DNA from: Bacillota bacterium
Lineage (GTDB): Bacteria > Bacillota > Dehalobacteriia > UBA4068 > UBA4997
Assembly: GCA_021769035.1 (NCBI GenBank)
Contig: JAETTP010000002.1
Location: 7,189 to 71,188, forward strand
Reading direction: 5' to 3'
Length of the DNA: 64,000 bases
The notes below the pieces were generated by a model. The model was given only the letters and a program-made list of their open reading frames with translations. It did no database searches and was not told where the DNA came from. Positions within the stretch are counted from its first letter, which is position 1, and each line of letters begins with the position of its first letter. Of the stretch, positions 3,619 through 54,849 are shown piece after piece. The translations under genes were made by a program, and so were the position numbers.

Positions 3619-4926
3619 TCTGCGACCAGCGCCCAAAATGCCAGAAGATATGGAACTTCCAGCAAAACCGGAGCTAGAACGCTCCAACAAATCGACAATC
3701 GTGCTGGCGGTCGTTCCGGCTGAATCCCGAACCGTAATTTTCATTTCACAACTACCAACGCCGGAAACCCTGGTTCTAATAGCATTTTCGGATCCCCAAC
3801 CGTCGCTGCTGCTGGTAACTTCACCATTTTGCATTAATTAAAACAAATATTCATAACCACCACTGCCACCAGATGCAGCAACTGAAAGGCTAAATTCCAA
3901 AGAATAACTATTTCCTACAATAGAAGCAGCCTTTGATAAACCTGCAACATCTACACGTAAATCACGATTAGCAGAGCTATTATTATCGTTATTATCTTCC
4001 CGGTCGTCTTCGTCATCATAATCATAAACCGGCCTAGATGAAGCGGAACCCTTTTCCAGCAAATCCACAACAGTGCGCACTTTATCGCCATTATCATCCC
4101 GCACCGTCACCCTAACTTCACAATTCCCACTGCCAGACAAACTGCTGCTAATACTATTTTTGTTAGTCCAGCCAGTGTCCTCCACAACCTTGTTGTTCTT
4201 CAACAATTCAAAGCGGTATTGATAATCGCCACTGCCGCCAGCCGCAAAAGCTGACAAACTGAACCGAATATTGTAAACTCTTCCGCTAATGGAAGCGCTT
4301 TTTGATAATGATGTTTTCACATTCAAATCATCATCGTAATTATCAGCATAATCATCATCGTTATAATACGACTCGTCAGCCCTACGGTCATTTCCTGACA
4401 TATTATGTAAATTATACAAAAGCACCATCACCTGACCACGGCTACAAATATGATTGGCTGAAAAAGTGCTAATACCCGTACTCTTGTTCAAACCATTTTC
4501 CACCGCCCAAGTTAAAGCGTCCGGCGATGGACGACCAGCAGTCAACCAAAGAGAGGTTAAAACCATACCCAAGTTACACTCAGCGTTTGGGTTAAATGTG
4601 TAACCAGATACCATTCCTTGCTGATAGCCCCAAAGCGCACACTTGTAATAAACACTGTTTATAGTATTGTTGAAAGGATTAGCAATGCCTGGCTCCGGCG
4701 CGCCGTTCATTCGCCACAAAAACAACAAAAATTGTCCTTGCGTACAAGGCTTATTAGGCTCAAAGATACCGTCGCCAGTTCCGTTAGTAATGCCATTTTC
4801 CGTAGCCCAAACCACCGCCTCAAAACAATATGAACCTGGCCAAACGTCCGTAAAATTAAACGCCACGGCTTTATCGCAAAAGACAAAGCAAAAAATTAAG
4901 GCCAAAGTAAATAGTTTGGGTTTCAT
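3616..4926 (-). pseudogene. SLH-domain repeat cell-surface protein interrupted by an in-frame TAA (3838-3840)
   Basis: Signal peptide MKPKLFTLALIFCFVF and two N-terminal SLH-like segments, then repeated ~90-aa modules (GGSGDYQYRF...CEVRVTVRDDNGDKVRTVVDLLEK). The 3616-3834 ORF is in the same frame and completes the second module (CEMKITVRDSAGTTASTIVDLLER). Confidence 0.55.
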
Positions 4927-49996: not shown

Positions 49997-50500
49997 TTAA
50001 CGCCGCCAAGGCGAAAAACCGCCGCCCTGGCCGCCGTCTGCTCCGCTGAAAGCCTGAACCTCCGGGTCCATAATCTGGCCGGCCAAATCAACCTGGCTGG
50101 AGCTGAACAAAAAAGTGGAACCGCTGACCTTTTTAGGCTCACCGTCCAGCGCAAAAACCGCGCCGGAAAGAAAATCCACCATGCGCTGGGCTGTTTCCTT
50201 GTCCAGATCCTCAAAATTGACAATAACCACCTTTTGCTCTTTAATATTGCGAGCAATGCTTTGCAAATCGTCATAAGCTTTGGCCTTGACCAAAACCATT
50301 TCATAGCTTTTTTTGGCCTCGGAGGCAGTGGGAATGGCCATCACCTGCGGCCGCCGTGCTTTTTGCACGTCTGCCTCCTGCCACACATCTTTTTTGGCGC
50401 CTTTGGCCAGCTCGTCCATTTCCTCCTGGTTCAAGCTGTCTTCCTCTTCGTCTTGAAAGAATATGCTGGATATTTTACTCCAAGCTCCTCCTCCTGCCAT
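49997..50500 (-). CDS. sepF: cell division protein SepF
   Basis: Conserved SepF C-terminal domain (VVIVNFEDLDKETAQRMVDFLSGAVFAL). Confidence 0.8.
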   Translation of the reverse strand: MAGGGAWSKISSIFFQDEEEDSLNQEEMDELAKGAKKDVWQEADVQKARRPQVMAIPTASEAKKSYEMVLVKAKAYDDLQSIARNIKEQKVVIVNFEDLDKETAQRMVDFLSGAVFALDGEPKKVSGSTFLFSSSQVDLAGQIMDPEVQAFSGADGGQGGGFSPWRR

Positions 50501-50553
50501 AAAGAACCCTCCTTAAAAAAATATAACCCAAACGCCTGGGCCGCCGGGCGACC

Positions 50554-51294
50554 TCAGCGATAAATTCTTGCTCCAAAAATCCGGCTACCGATACGCACCA
50601 TTGTGGCGCCCTCTTCCACGGCAACTCTGTAATCATTCGACATACCCATCGAAAGCTCCTGCAAAGACAGATTGGAATAAGCGACTTTTTCCGCCCTTTG
50701 CTGCATTTTATCGCGCAGGCTGCGCATTTCCGCAAACACAGGCCGGGCTTGCTCCGGCTGTTCCACCGCCGGGGCCACCGTCATCAGGCCGCGAATATTC
50801 ACATGCGAGAGGGCCGCGCAGCTTTGCAAAAAATCCCACAGCTCCGTCGGGGCCAGTCCGAATTTGCTGCCCTCGGCGGCCACGTTCACCTCCACCAGGC
50901 AATCCAGCGGCAAACCGCGGGCCTCCGCCTGTTTTTCCAGTTCCACCGCCAAATGCCAGCTATCCAAAGAATGCAGCAGCCGCAAACGGGGCGTTGCCAA
51001 AAGCTGTTTAACCTTGTTGGTTTGCAGATGGCCGATGAAGTGCCAAGGGGTCGTCTGGGGCAAAAACTCGCTTTTTTGTCGCAGCTCCTGCACCTTGTTT
51101 TCCGCCAGGCCCGCCAAACCCAAAGGTTGTCCGGCCTGCCAGCAAGCTGCCGCCCGCCAGGCCTCCACCGTTTTGGAAACCGCCAACAGTTTCACCTGGG
51201 ACGCGGCGTGAGGGCTGGCCTCCCTAAGCTCGGCAATCTCCCGCAGCAGCTGGCCCAGCCGCTCGGCAAACTCCTGCTCCGCCTGAATTTGCAT
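50554..51294 (-). CDS. YggS-family pyridoxal-phosphate homeostasis protein
   Basis: Alanine-racemase-N fold with PLP lysine context (LLAVSKT) and HFIGHLQTNK. Start placed at the second ATG (51294), which has a weak RBS. The ORF-track start at 51333 has none. Confidence 0.7.
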   Translation of the reverse strand: MQIQAEQEFAERLGQLLREIAELREASPHAASQVKLLAVSKTVEAWRAAACWQAGQPLGLAGLAENKVQELRQKSEFLPQTTPWHFIGHLQTNKVKQLLATPRLRLLHSLDSWHLAVELEKQAEARGLPLDCLVEVNVAAEGSKFGLAPTELWDFLQSCAALSHVNIRGLMTVAPAVEQPEQARPVFAEMRSLRDKMQQRAEKVAYSNLSLQELSMGMSNDYRVAVEEGATMVRIGSRIFGARIYR

Positions 51295-51449
51295 TTGTTC
51301 CTGCTCCGTCAACGCAGCCGCGCCTCCTCTCATCTTTTGCCATTTAAATAAAGCTGATATACTATTATATCACAATAACATGTATTTTGCAAAATATTTT
51401 TTTGAAAAAATTAAAAATTTTTTTTCTGGCTCCAACATCTTGACATCCT

Positions 51450-51478
51450 CCACTTTGTGTGCGATAATATTTCTGCAC
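51450..51478 (+). promoter_or_regulatory. sigma-70-like promoter of nrdD (TTGACA-17-GATAAT)
   Basis: Hexamers at 51450-51455 and 51473-51478. Confidence 0.4.
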
Positions 51479-51623: not shown

Positions 51624-53981
51624 ATGTTTGACAGTATTATCAAGCGCGACGGGCGCCGCGTGCCTTATGACATCAGCAAAATCACCGACGCAATCCGCAA
51701 GGCGATGGAAGCCAGCGGGCGCGACGCCGCCGGGCAGGAATGCGAGCGTTTGGCCGCCCTGGTGGAGGACAAGCTGAACGCCACCTTTAAGGGCGAGGCC
51801 CCAGGCATTGAGGATATTCAGGATATGGTGGAAACCGTGCTGATGGAAAACGGTTACGCCCTGGTAGCCCGCAAATACATTATTTACCGTAGCGAGCGCA
51901 CCCGCAGCCGCGAGATGAACACCCGACTGATGCGCATTTACGACGAGCTGACCAACACGGATTCTCTGCTGTCAGACATGAAGCGCGACAACGCTAATAT
52001 CGACGGCGACACCGCCATGGGCACAATGCTGAAATACGGCAGCGAGGGCGCTAAGGATTACTACGAAAAATATGTGCTCTCGCCGGCCCAAAGCAAGGCC
52101 CACGCCGAGGGCGACATTCATATCCACGATTTCGATTTTTACACCCTGACGACCACCTGCTGCCAGATTAATCTGCTGGATCTTTTCAAAGACGGTTTTT
52201 CCACCGGGCACGGTTTTCTGCGGGAACCCAACGACATCTCCAGCTACACTGCGCTGGCCTGCATTGCCATTCAGTCCAACCAAAACGACCAGCACGGCGG
52301 CCAAAGCGTGCCCAACTTCGATTATTGTATGGCGCCGGGCGTGGCCAAAACTTTCAAAAAGCTGTATATCAGCAATTTTTTCAAGGCGGCGGAACTGCTT
52401 TGGCCGCAGTATCCGCTCTCGCAGGACCAGACCAAGGCTGTTTTTGAGCAGCTGGCCGCCGAGCAGCCGGAGCTTATGCCCCGCATTGCTTTAAGCGAGC
52501 AGTTTGAACCCGCCTTGCAGGAGGCGCTGCAAACGGCCATTGCCGAGCCTGATAAACAGCTGCCGGCGGAGGTTTTTGCCCACTGCGCCCGCTTTGCCTA
52601 CGACACCGCCCTGGCGGAAACGGACAAGCACACCTTTCAGGCTATGGAGGCGCTGGTGCACAATCTGAACACTATGCACAGCCGGGCCGGCGCACAAACC
52701 CCGTTTTCCTCCATCAACTACGGAACGGACACCTCGCCGGAGGGACGCATGGCCAGCAAAAATATTCTGCTGGCGACGGAGGCCGGCCTGGGCCAGGGCG
52801 AAACGCCGATTTTCCCTATTCACATCTTCAAGGTGAAAGCCGGCGTCAGCTTCAACCCGGAGGACCCCAACTACGACCTTTTCAAGCTGGCCTGCCGGGT
52901 CAGCGCCAAGCGGCTGTTCCCCAACTTTTCTTTCATCGACGCGCCGTTTAACCTGCAATATTACAAGCCAGGCCACCCGGAAACGGAGGTTTCCTATATG
53001 GGCTGCCGCACCCGCGTGCTGGGCAACCACTACAACCCGCAGCAGGAAATCACCTACGGCCGCGGCAACCTGAGCTTCACCTCAATCAACCTGCCCCGTA
53101 TTGCGATTAAGGCCAACCACAATCTGGAGCTTTTCTTCGACGATTTGGAGCGCAAAATGGATTTGGTAGCCAACCAGCTGCTGGACCGCTTCAAAATCCA
53201 ATCCCACAAAAAAGTGCGCAACTTCCCCTTTTTGATGGGCCAGGGCGTTTGGATTGGCTCCAAGGATTTGGATATTGACGACGAGGTGGGCGAGGTGCTG
53301 AAAAACGGCACCCTATCCATCGGCTTTATTGGCCTGGCGGAAACGCTGGTGGCCCTCACCGGCAAGCACCATGGCGAGTGCGTGGAATCCCGCAACCTGG
53401 GCCAGGAAATCGTCAGCTTTATGCGCGAATACTGCGACCGCAAAAGCGAGGAAACCGGCCTGAACTTCACCCTGCTGGCTACTCCGGCCGAGGGCCTCTC
53501 CGGCCGCTTTGTCCGCATTGATAAGAAGAAATTCGGCATTATCCCCGGCGTCACCGACCGCGATTACTACACCAACAGCTTCCACGTGCCGGTTTACTAC
53601 CCCATCAGCGCCTATGAAAAGCTGAAGATTGAAGCGCCCTATCACGCGCTGACCAACGCCGGCCACATCTCTTATGTGGAGCTGGACGGCGACACCGCTA
53701 AAAATATTGAAGCGTTTGAGCAAATCGTCCGTTATATGCAGCAAGTCGGCATCGGCTACGGCTCTATCAACCACCCGGTTGACCGCGACCCGGTTTGCGG
53801 CTACAGCGGCATTATCAACGAGGTTTGCCCGCGCTGCGGCCGCCACGAGGGCGAGGGCGTCAGCCTGAGCAAGCTGCGAGCGATTAAGGCCACCGTGCGC
53901 GGCAATACGGAAACCTGCGGCTACTGCGGCGACCCTAACGAAGAAAACGAACGTCAGGCCAACCCCAACAAGCTGGGCTGA
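51624..53981 (+). CDS. nrdD: anaerobic ribonucleoside-triphosphate reductase (class III), large polypeptide ending after the zinc ribbon
   Basis: AGGAGG RBS then ATG 51624. ATP-cone N-terminus (MFDSIIKRDGRRVPYD). C-terminal Cys cluster CPRCG..CGYCG. No C-terminal RxxGY glycyl-radical motif in this ORF. Confidence 0.85.
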   Translation: MFDSIIKRDGRRVPYDISKITDAIRKAMEASGRDAAGQECERLAALVEDKLNATFKGEAPGIEDIQDMVETVLMENGYALVARKYIIYRSERTRSREMNTRLMRIYDELTNTDSLLSDMKRDNANIDGDTAMGTMLKYGSEGAKDYYEKYVLSPAQSKAHAEGDIHIHDFDFYTLTTTCCQINLLDLFKDGFSTGHGFLREPNDISSYTALACIAIQSNQNDQHGGQSVPNFDYCMAPGVAKTFKKLYISNFFKAAELLWPQYPLSQDQTKAVFEQLAAEQPELMPRIALSEQFEPALQEALQTAIAEPDKQLPAEVFAHCARFAYDTALAETDKHTFQAMEALVHNLNTMHSRAGAQTPFSSINYGTDTSPEGRMASKNILLATEAGLGQGETPIFPIHIFKVKAGVSFNPEDPNYDLFKLACRVSAKRLFPNFSFIDAPFNLQYYKPGHPETEVSYMGCRTRVLGNHYNPQQEITYGRGNLSFTSINLPRIAIKANHNLELFFDDLERKMDLVANQLLDRFKIQSHKKVRNFPFLMGQGVWIGSKDLDIDDEVGEVLKNGTLSIGFIGLAETLVALTGKHHGECVESRNLGQEIVSFMREYCDRKSEETGLNFTLLATPAEGLSGRFVRIDKKKFGIIPGVTDRDYYTNSFHVPVYYPISAYEKLKIEAPYHALTNAGHISYVELDGDTAKNIEAFEQIVRYMQQVGIGYGSINHPVDRDPVCGYSGIINEVCPRCGRHEGEGVSLSKLRAIKATVRGNTETCGYCGDPNEENERQANPNKLG

Positions 53982-54018
53982 CGTAAATATAATAACGAAA
54001 ACTAAAGGAGCGATTGAT

Positions 54019-54186
54019 ATGACTAACAATAAAAACACTAATCCGCAAAATGATGTTATGGTGGGCGAGGGCGTAGGCTTTGAGCGTATCCGCCGGATCA
54101 CCGGCTATCTTGTAGGCACCCTGGACCGTTTCAACAACGCCAAACGCGCCGAGGAAAAGGACCGCGTGAAGCACAATGTCGGCTAA
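54019..54186 (+). CDS. 55-aa protein carrying the NrdD-type glycyl-radical motif (RRITGYLVG ... FNNAKRAEEKDRVKH)
   Basis: AAAGGAG RBS then ATG 54019. The sequence resembles the extreme C-terminus of E. coli NrdD (RRVCGYLG...FNAGKQEEVKRRVKH). It overlaps the nrdG start by 11 nt. Confidence 0.5.
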   Translation: MTNNKNTNPQNDVMVGEGVGFERIRRITGYLVGTLDRFNNAKRAEEKDRVKHNVG

Positions 54187-54718
54187 TTGCCCAACCCAAA
54201 CAACACCGCGGACAATCCAGCTGGCCGGCGTCGTCAATGATTCTATCACCGACGGCCCAGGCATTCGGCTGACGGTGTTTGTGCAAGGCTGCCCGCACCA
54301 TTGCCCCGGCTGCCACAATCAGCAGACCTGGGATTTTGCCGGCGGCCAGCCAACCACAACCGAGGAGCTTTGGCAGCAAATTCAGCAAAACCCGCTGCTT
54401 TCCGGCGTTACTTTCAGCGGCGGCGAGCCTATGGCCCAGGCCGCGGCCCTGTTGCCGCTGGCCCAACGGATTAAGCAGGCCGGGCTGGAGCTGGCTATTT
54501 ACTCCGGCTACACATTTGAGCAGTTGCTGAACCTGCCCGACCCTGCCGTCCGCCAGCTGCTTGAACTGGCCGACACATTGATTGACGGGCCTTTCATTTT
54601 GGCTCAGCGCAATTTGGAGCTGAACTTCCGCGGCTCTGAGAACCAACGGATTCTTAAAGCGGCCGCCTCGTTAAAAGAGGGCCGTCCGGTTTTAGAAGAA
54701 GCTGAACGCTGGCATTAA
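54176..54718 (+). CDS. nrdG: anaerobic ribonucleoside-triphosphate reductase activating protein
   Basis: Radical-SAM cluster motif CPHHCPGCHN and GGEP. Confidence 0.85.
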   Translation: MSANCPTQTTPRTIQLAGVVNDSITDGPGIRLTVFVQGCPHHCPGCHNQQTWDFAGGQPTTTEELWQQIQQNPLLSGVTFSGGEPMAQAAALLPLAQRIKQAGLELAIYSGYTFEQLLNLPDPAVRQLLELADTLIDGPFILAQRNLELNFRGSENQRILKAAASLKEGRPVLEEAERWH

Positions 54719-54722
54719 ATGC

Positions 54723-54849
54723 TTGACAAAAGGGCGGAAAGTATTGTATAATAAATAAAGAAAGAGCCGGCCTCAAATGGGGTCAGCCCTCAATAGTTAG
54801 CTACAAAAATAGCCGTAACCTTTTGGAAGTTGGAGGCGGCTATTTTTTT
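54723..54849 (+). ncRNA. small transcription unit 1: consensus promoter (TTGACA-18-TATAAT) + ~90-nt transcript + intrinsic terminator
   Basis: -35 at 54723-54728, -10 at 54747-54752. Terminator ATAGCCG..CGGCTAT + T7 at 54809-54849. No credible ORF. Paralogous copy at 56694-56815. Confidence 0.45.

Follow-up and report, generated by a model that had tools for sequence, protein, structure and literature searches.

The glycyl-radical loop in a class III ribonucleotide reductase is encoded by a separate small gene conserved among gut anaerobes

We report on a gene for the anaerobic (class III) ribonucleotide reductase (RNR) NrdD that is divided in two. It lies in a 64,000-nucleotide stretch of the genome of a Bacillota bacterium (assembly GCA_021769035.1, contig JAETTP010000002.1, positions 7,189 to 71,188; hereafter the window, to which all coordinates refer unless a locus is named). 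The larger gene, nrdD-large, encodes the barrel polypeptide, and the glycyl-radical motif RxxGY is found on a 55-codon gene that starts after a gap of 37 nt. The enzyme agrees with class III RNRs in every feature that we tested but one, namely that its radical motif is off the barrel polypeptide. The two-piece layout is real and conserved across many gut anaerobes, and the sequences make it probable (roughly 80%) that the two products form a functional class III RNR with a catalytic chain divided between two polypeptides.

Many strict anaerobes depend on class III RNR, a textbook glycyl-radical enzyme, as their essential source of deoxynucleoside triphosphates (dNTPs). The enzymes of this class have been described as homodimers of one polypeptide (PMC4520616), a chain with a radical glycine of its own. 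A first-pass annotation of the window had read the locus as a true two-piece class III reductase, and the analysis presented here supports that reading in its essentials.

Results

The two genes are co-oriented with the activase gene nrdG on the forward strand and form one operon with it, in the order nrdD-large (51624..53981), small-subunit gene (54019..54186) and nrdG (54176..54718). The best start of nrdD-large is the ATG at 51624, with AGGAGG 11 nt upstream, and the resulting 785 amino acids (against 786 in the first-pass annotation, a trivial difference) equal the length of homologues that are 96% identical. The open reading frame (ORF) ends in GGC TGA, the stop codon being at 53979-53981. 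It is followed by an AT-rich intergenic gap (53982..54018), in which the GC content dips to 0.30, and the small ORF then opens in another frame (offset +1). As had been proposed, this ORF possesses its own ATG and ribosome-binding site, a Shine-Dalgarno sequence AAAGGAG at 54004-54010 that ends 8 nt before the start codon, and its initiation region is predicted to be unstructured (minimum free energy -4.9 kcal/mol over 91 nt, z +1.5). The nrdG start codon at 54176 lies inside the small ORF, and the overlap with its 3' end, likewise seen at first reading, amounts to 11 nt. NrdG itself, a radical S-adenosylmethionine protein of 180 amino acids, was identified by TIGR02491 (142.6 bits, cut-off 126.1) and a match to Fer4_12.

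The product of nrdD-large matches the ATP-cone model of Pfam and, at profile positions 1-531 of 562, the Pfam model NRDD (PF13597; 634 bits, cut-off 26.2), as well as NCBIfam PRK07111 at positions 2-712 of 746 (1090 bits, cut-off 764) and TIGR02487 (579 bits, cut-off 326). The closest solved structure is NrdD of Prevotella copri (PDB 8p23, E 1e-175), and the alignment to it stops at CPRCGRHEGE, which corresponds to chain residue 708. Besides the ATP-cone, the catalytic residues are all present: the NxN flap (from D122), the beta-A cysteines Cys179/180, the finger loop M459-G-C461-R, Asn482 and Glu623. The segments YMGC461RTR and TTTC179C180Q align to the Cys416 loop and to Cys171 of the P. copri enzyme, respectively, and the MGCR finger-loop motif is a mark of the formate-type NrdD lineage (PMC9669993). 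A zinc ribbon with the predicted ligands D722/C725 and C735/C738 (DPVCGY...CPRCG) aligns to CLDCGY...CPKCG of 8p23. The first ligand of this putative metal site would be aspartate, in place of the cysteine of 8p23; variation among the zinc ligands has a precedent in the CxxxHx6CxxC arrangement of T. maritima NrdD (PMC4493059). Absent from the barrel polypeptide is the glycyl-radical motif RxxGY, the NRDD match ending at position 531 of 562. The first-pass annotation had left room for a functional radical loop in PVCGYSG, upstream of the ribbon cysteines; this segment is excluded as such, as it aligns to CLDCGYEN, the first zinc knuckle of P. copri NrdD. The same annotation had the protein end directly after a zinc ribbon CPRCG...CGYCG, which was correct for CPRCG but not for CGYCG (C765/C768): the latter lies outside the ribbon, within a lineage-specific C-terminal tail of 39 amino acids (S747-G785, 53862..53978).

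The part of the family profile that nrdD-large does not reach is covered by the small protein, in agreement with the earlier placement of the RxxGY motif on a separate ORF. Its 55 amino acids (MTNNKNTNPQNDVMVGEGVGFERIRRITGYLVGTLDRFNNAKRAEEKDRVKHNVG) fall into a leader of variable sequence that is rich in N, K and T (residues 1-15) and a core (G16-H52) that is conserved and reads GEGVGFERIRRITG29YLVGTLDRFNNAKRAEEKDRVKH, with the radical-glycine codon at 54103-54105. The protein matches Pfam NRDD at positions 533-562, RRITG29Y included, with 32.3 bits and thus above the cut-off of 26.2, and NCBIfam PRK07111 at positions 711-744 of 746. Residues 21-53 align to chain residues 707-739 of P. copri NrdD, that is, to the Gly711 loop and the C-terminal tail. 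In the P. copri enzyme residues 676-739 constitute the glycyl radical domain, which consists of the zinc site, the buried Gly711 loop, a short helix and an extended tail (PMC11226230). Since nrdD-large ends at P. copri residue 708 and the small protein spans 707-739, the break falls inside this domain, between zinc ribbon and glycine loop. The counterparts of Tyr712 and Arg719, through which the glycine loop of P. copri NrdD is anchored to Glu581 and the flap (PMC11226230), are Tyr30 and Arg37 in the small protein. G29, Y30 and R37 are invariant across the alignment of the small-protein family, and the core as a whole is nearly so, while the leader and the C-terminal end vary freely among homologues.

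The small protein showed no match to the Pfam Gly_radical model (PF01228) or to the GrcA model; Pfam returned NRDD and a sub-threshold match to Pinin, and NCBIfam three NrdD models. No family devoted to it was found in PHROG, Pfam or NCBIfam, where it matches only the C-terminal end of full-length NrdD models. A tblastn search of the window gave no second copy of the glycine loop, the next match having an E-value of 0.087.

The identical 55-amino-acid protein is present on 217 public contigs, under the names "hypothetical protein [Peptococcaceae bacterium]" at NCBI and "anaerobic ribonucleoside-triphosphate reductase" at JGI. A word-indexed search returned 8000 matches, and the best 120 clusters at 90% identity all hold proteins of 46-81 amino acids; a protein of 435 amino acids (P0131) in the small protein's own 90% cluster proved to be unrelated, and was set aside as a clustering artefact. 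An exhaustive profile search against 1.84 billion cluster representatives gave 1803 matches at E 1e-10 or better. Among these, the best 150 (clusters at 50% identity) are all short, with 54-196 amino acids and a median of 66, all begin with methionine, as did every homologue whose sequence was inspected, and 139 of the 150 contain RRITGYLVG. Homologues of the small protein that stand alone thus fill at least 150 clusters at 50% identity.

In a scan of one genome per species, which yielded at least 598 loci, the best 80 (L001-L080) were classified. An nrdD-large gene lies directly upstream of the small ORF at 66 of them, and at 56 of these 66 nrdG also follows downstream; single-chain nrdD was found at six of the 80. 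The gap in split loci ranges from 1 to 298 nt, and frame offsets of 0, 1 and 2 all occur. ATG is nearly always the start codon of the small ORF, with an AGGAGG-type site 7-9 nt ahead of it, and the start of nrdG overlaps the small-ORF stop or lies within 30 nt of it in 44 of the 56 split loci that have nrdG. Across the genomes the 37-codon core shows strong purifying selection, with 0.13 changes per nonsynonymous site (pN) and 0.85 per synonymous site (pS, saturated), i.e. a pN/pS of 0.15, and the other two reading frames across the small ORF are closed in 62/75 and 70/75 loci. Ten of the 24 gaps of 60 nt or more hold a sigma-70-like promoter (at least 9/12 matches), against 3.7 +/- 1.7 in shuffled sequences, so that some lineages may transcribe the small gene and nrdG separately from nrdD-large. 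To judge from the record titles, Oscillospiraceae, Acutalibacteraceae, Butyricicoccus, Anaerovoracaceae and uncultured Bacilli are among the carriers of split loci, as are the cultured isolates Acutalibacter caecimuris M00118 (L019), Scatolibacter rhodanostii (L057) and "Bacterium 1XD42-1". Comparison with related NrdD proteins pointed the same way: the 34 closest homologues of the large subunit (71-96% identity) are all split, with small proteins that are 85-98% identical, and continuous single-chain relatives appear only from 69-75% identity downward.

The small gene also occurs by itself. At six of the 80 best genome loci (L013, L022, L029, L038, L076 and L079, with the match near locus position 4001, or at 3402 in L079) no nrdD-large was found within 4 kb, and five of the six are also without a nearby nrdG. 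Their hosts are two Desulfovibrio, one member of the Deltaproteobacteria, one Succinivibrio, one Anaerostipes and one Candidatus Crickella metagenome-assembled genome, and the neighbours at the five loci that were scanned are unrelated or prophage genes (GemA, DUF5131, GGDEF-HD, a zinc protease and a thioesterase). A scan of the viral sequences in IMG/VR produced at least 579 loci, of which the best 80 (L081-L160) were classified: 64 are orphan small genes with neither nrdD nor nrdG within 4 kb, 11 have too little upstream sequence to judge, and two are fused. The orphan phage genes encode 44-60 amino acids (e.g. L100 4001-4135, L106 3992-4165, L133 3992-4132 and L146 3989-4138). Among seven sampled loci, four have neighbours of named function, and there the orphans sit between tail-fibre, endolysin and integrase genes, the usual place of temperate-phage cargo genes. 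The viral copies are under the same purifying selection as those in genomes (pN/pS 0.155). The Eggerthella phage EL753P1 (OP172808.1; L161 1694-5160) carries an nrdD with a split-type tail, followed by an ORF of 102 amino acids and then the small ORF; an intein is inserted in its nrdD at the catalytic finger loop, between MGC and RTRV. We considered this phage as a cultured example and rejected it, because the small ORF is frameshifted in the deposited record, beside a repeated ATTTGACC.

The C-terminal ends of the large subunits were compared with those of single-chain relatives. The latter read CPxCGRxE-(5-6 residues)-FERIRRITGYLVG and have no tail, about 8 residues joining CPxCGR to GxGFERIRRITGY. 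Every split large subunit, by comparison, continues as CPRCGRxxGE[GA][VI][SP]xEKLxxL and then enters one of three types of tail: about 45 residues, as in the window (type 1); 28 residues (..RKKYPNMPxFxGIE; type 2); or 18 residues ending in CC or CxC (type 3). Over their whole length the long tails can be aligned with the domain of the glycine loop, anchored by GEGV, [LI][KR][KR][LI] and EE.D[RK], and profile alignment with hhalign gave P values of 4e-4 and 6e-4 for two sets of tails. The tail in the window reads RAIKAT in the columns of RRITGY, so that Ala-Thr stands where the loop has Gly-Tyr and the radical-glycine position is an alanine. The tails of L007, L036 and L061 (large-subunit stops at locus positions 3684, 3949 and 3948) keep a G-Y in register with RRITGY (KKLNGY, KKLKGY and KAKGY) together with EE.DKV.H. 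GEGV is found in both pieces in most split loci, and in the window it is encoded by an exact 12-nt direct repeat, GGGCGAGGGCGT. The first copy (53849..53860) marks the end of the conserved large-subunit part, and the second (54063..54074), at a distance of 214 nt, the start of the small-subunit core.

Two further features of these ends were observed. Cysteine pairs terminate many large-subunit tails (CC, CxC, CGYCG) and some small-subunit C-termini (..CCSLDE, ..CSCTK, ..SSCCG) among the 80 genome loci, frequently though not universally; the pair in the window is C765xxC768 (53916-53927). In addition, a 15-nt direct repeat with 14/15 identical positions, TGCGGCTAC[A/T]GCGGC, occurs at 53796-53810 and 53916-53930, its copies encoding CGYSG of the first zinc knuckle and, in the tail, CGYCG; the similarity of the two peptides, combined with a strong codon bias, may suffice as an explanation.

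The remaining features concern the surroundings of the operon. A consensus scan predicts a likely operon promoter, TTGACA-17-GATAAT with a TG extension (11/12 matches), at 51440..51468, and calls none inside the 37-nt gap. No Rfam match was obtained anywhere in the window at gathering thresholds, and the operon leader and the gap thus contain no riboswitch or known RNA. Downstream of nrdG a putative terminator hairpin with a T-run, AATAGCCG...CGGCTATTTTTTT (54808..54849, forward strand), was recognised by eye and would close the operon; the terminator scanner did not call it because its loop is long. A perfect promoter TTGACA-18-TATAAT lies 5 nt past the nrdG stop, with this hairpin and T-run about 50 nt further on, and the region (54723-54849, forward strand), for which Rfam returned nothing, could encode a small RNA of about 90 nt, or the hairpin could do no more than terminate nrdG. 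The opposite strand carries, upstream of the operon (49997-51333), a sepF-like gene (167 amino acids) and a gene resembling YggS-type PLP-binding proteins (259 amino acids), both judged by eye from the translations.

Discussion

Our results favor a class III RNR that is assembled from two separately encoded parts, of which the large subunit would supply the ATP-cone, the zinc ribbon and a barrel of ten strands that contains the finger loop with Cys461, and the small subunit the glycyl-radical loop and the C-terminal tail. According to this model the small ORF would be translated independently, and translation of nrdG would be coupled to it through the overlap. NrdG together with S-adenosylmethionine would abstract hydrogen from Gly29 of the free small protein, and the activated loop would then enter the large-subunit barrel and come to lie beside Cys461, where it would be held by the contacts known from single-chain NrdD, from Tyr30 to Glu623 and from Arg37 to the NxN flap. 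Formate would probably serve as the reductant, because the finger loop of the large subunit is of the MGCR kind and Asn482 stands where a third cysteine would be.

The arrangement is best understood by comparison with the canonical single-chain NrdD and its activase NrdG, as in E. coli, phage T4 and P. copri (PDB 8p23, 1h7a). Family and domain order are the same (ATP-cone, barrel, MGCR loop, zinc ribbon, RxxGY loop and C-terminal tail), and the activase gene is adjacent. In the window, however, the chain is broken between zinc ribbon and glycine loop, the large piece bears an extra and apparently decayed copy of the loop, and the small piece has a start of its own and a variable leader. In single-chain enzymes the glycine domain must flip out of the core for the activase to gain access (PMC12662201), and this domain is highly mobile (PMC11226230); with the loop on a separate protein such a movement would not be needed. 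Among RNRs the nearest precedent is NrdJa/NrdJb, the class II enzyme of Pseudomonas aeruginosa, in which the catalytic chain is also cut near the C-terminus and specified by two adjacent operon genes, both of them needed, that form a dimer of heterodimers (PMC4520616). NrdJb (229 amino acids) nevertheless carries a redox cysteine tail rather than the radical site, and it belongs to another class of RNR. Phage nrdD genes are also known in pieces, as in T4, which has a group I intron with I-TevII, and as fragments in Aeromonas phage phiAS4 (PMC3653736). Those interruptions are introns or inteins repaired by splicing, or an unexplained fragmentation in one genome, and not a conserved two-protein design with separate starts. 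We found no description of a two-piece NrdD, or of a spare part for an RNR, in full-text literature searches, within whose reach most subscription papers did not fall, nor in Pfam, NCBIfam or PHROG.

In a single assembly, a divided essential enzyme would most obviously be explained by an indel from sequencing or assembly, or by the recent decay of an ordinary single-chain nrdD into a pseudogene, and in the record of one cultured phage (OP172808.1) the small ORF is indeed frameshifted. We regard this explanation as the least credible of those considered. The identical small protein was recovered from 217 independent contigs, 66 species-level genomes retain the split, both pieces being under selection, and the split form contains about 210 nt (tail, gap, Shine-Dalgarno sequence and leader) that fused relatives lack. 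No single indel produces that, as had been argued earlier for the new ribosome-binding site and the leader. Scarcely more credible is the synthesis of one polypeptide by programmed frameshifting, or by ribosome bypassing over the 37-nt gap with a take-off at GGC-TGA as in phage T4 gene 60, although the large ORF does end in GGC TGA, in-frame GGC codons are found at the start of the small-ORF core, and the frame offset in the window is +1. With gaps of such variable length and in all three frames no conserved recoding signal could survive, and what is kept instead, nearly always, is the ATG and the AGGAGG-type site. The excess of promoter-like sites in long gaps and the orphan small genes with no nrdD upstream are also difficult to reconcile with recoding. 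Taken together, the recovery from 217 contigs, the free variation of gap and frame, the retention of Shine-Dalgarno sequence and ATG, and the pN/pS of 0.15 exclude sequencing error, pseudogene formation and recoding. Trans-splicing of the proteins by a split intein was rejected as well: Pfam detects no intein or Hint domain on either piece, and the tail (39 amino acids) and the leader (15 amino acids) are too short and are accounted for by the homology to the glycine loop.

The alternative that deserves more attention, though we consider it unlikely, is that the small protein is an accessory spare part, comparable to GrcA/YfiD for pyruvate formate-lyase (PFL), that rescues oxygen-damaged enzyme while the large subunit still carries a radical of its own, for example at the CGYCG of its tail. 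That tail probably derives from a copy of the glycine loop, and in L007, L036 and L061 it keeps [KR][KR][LI]xGY in register. Moreover, ETCGYCG in the window fits most of the PROSITE pattern R-[IVT]-[CSA]-G-Y-x-[GACV], and the orphans that phages and some genomes of Desulfovibrio and Succinivibrionaceae carry away from any nrdD behave like autonomous parts. On the other hand, the radical-glycine position of the window tail is an alanine, CGYCG is out of register and without arginine at -3, and the large protein does not match the family profile as far as the glycine loop. Finally, most split loci have tails of types 2 and 3, which end shortly after GEGVSxEKLxEL without any G-Y, and in those loci the small protein must be the sole carrier of the radical.

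The resemblance to GrcA/YfiD of E. coli and Y06I of phage T4 is nonetheless instructive. Oxygen cleaves glycyl-radical enzymes at the radical glycine, and PFL can be rescued by YfiD/GrcA or by the T4 homologue Y06I (PMC8683613). In each case a small stand-alone protein combines a disordered N-terminal part with a glycine-radical loop, is presumably activated by the activase of its partner and inserted into a barrel without a working loop, and exists in a phage-borne version (PMC8683613). The small protein of the window is not homologous to GrcA at the family level (IPR011140, PF01228), and it has 55 amino acids instead of 127. Furthermore, the partner of GrcA/YfiD has its own glycine loop, which is replaced after oxygen cleavage, whereas the large subunit of the window has none; the small protein is consequently to be seen as a constitutive subunit and not as a repair part. 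Spare-part glycyl-radical proteins are known only for formate-lyases (June 2026 review, PMC13450708), validation being restricted to PFL, and the 2021 study of YfiD wonders whether other enzymes have them (PMC8683613).

As for what the cell could gain from a two-piece reductase, we can only speculate, by analogy with these systems, that an oxygen-labile and consumable part might become a cheap module that can be replaced and activated separately. The phage-borne orphan copies fit this idea of a modular, replaceable loop. A more far-reaching version of it, which we put forward tentatively and hold to be possible rather than probable, is that the 55-amino-acid protein is a diffusible and exchangeable "radical cartridge" that would be charged by NrdG in solution, plugged into the large subunit, destroyed by oxygen and replaced by a fresh copy, with no need to make the 88-kDa enzyme anew; the temperate phages that infect gut anaerobes might then carry a copy of their own, beside lysis and integration genes, to sustain or boost dNTP synthesis of the host.

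With regard to origin, we infer with moderate confidence, from sequence comparison, that the split arose by duplication followed by decay. The final ~40 codons of an nrdD that encoded a single chain would have been duplicated in tandem; the fused copy would then have decayed or been truncated into the present tail, with the change from glycine to alanine in the window, and the free copy would have gained a Shine-Dalgarno sequence, an ATG and a leader. A stage in between, in which a fused and a free glycine loop coexist, may be represented by L007, L036 and L061.

The interpretation of the locus as a functional two-piece enzyme calls for some caution on several points. The G-Y kept in the tails of L007, L036 and L061 means that the small protein may not be obligatory everywhere. 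The split and fused calls were made from each locus and its surroundings, and an intact nrdD elsewhere in the same genome would lie outside their scope. Being tethered and homologous to the glycine loop, the tail of the large subunit might occupy the barrel in competition with the small subunit. When the large and small proteins were concatenated and modelled by AlphaFold2 with an alignment of 89 rows, the mean predicted local distance difference test score (pLDDT) was 70.7, and residues 710-840 scored below 50. A fused homologue (P0189) run as a control at the same depth gave 70-78 for the zinc ribbon but also less than 50 for its glycine loop, so that these models speak neither for docking nor against it. 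Nor does the history appear to be simple: a neighbour-joining tree built from the bodies of the large subunits mixes split with fused forms and implies about five Fitch changes, and because the sampling of this tree is biased towards split forms and its branches have no support values, it does not tell how often the gene was split or fused again.

In conclusion, a radical loop that is widely encoded on a separate protein of 6 kDa contradicts the statement, made in 2015, that NrdJa/NrdJb is the sole split RNR of cellular organisms (PMC4520616), and it bears on the open question of whether enzymes beyond PFL have spare-part or autonomous radical domains (PMC8683613, PMC13450708). The two-piece NrdD offers a natural system for the study of the access of the activase to the glycine, the docking of the loop and the repair of oxygen damage. 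In gut bacteria and their phages, small genes by the thousand that are now listed as "hypothetical protein" could be named, and large subunits annotated as complete NrdD would need re-annotation. If the small protein does act as an exchangeable cartridge, it would be the first autonomous glycyl-radical cofactor outside the formate-lyases, and its phage-borne copies would constitute a new class of phage auxiliary gene.

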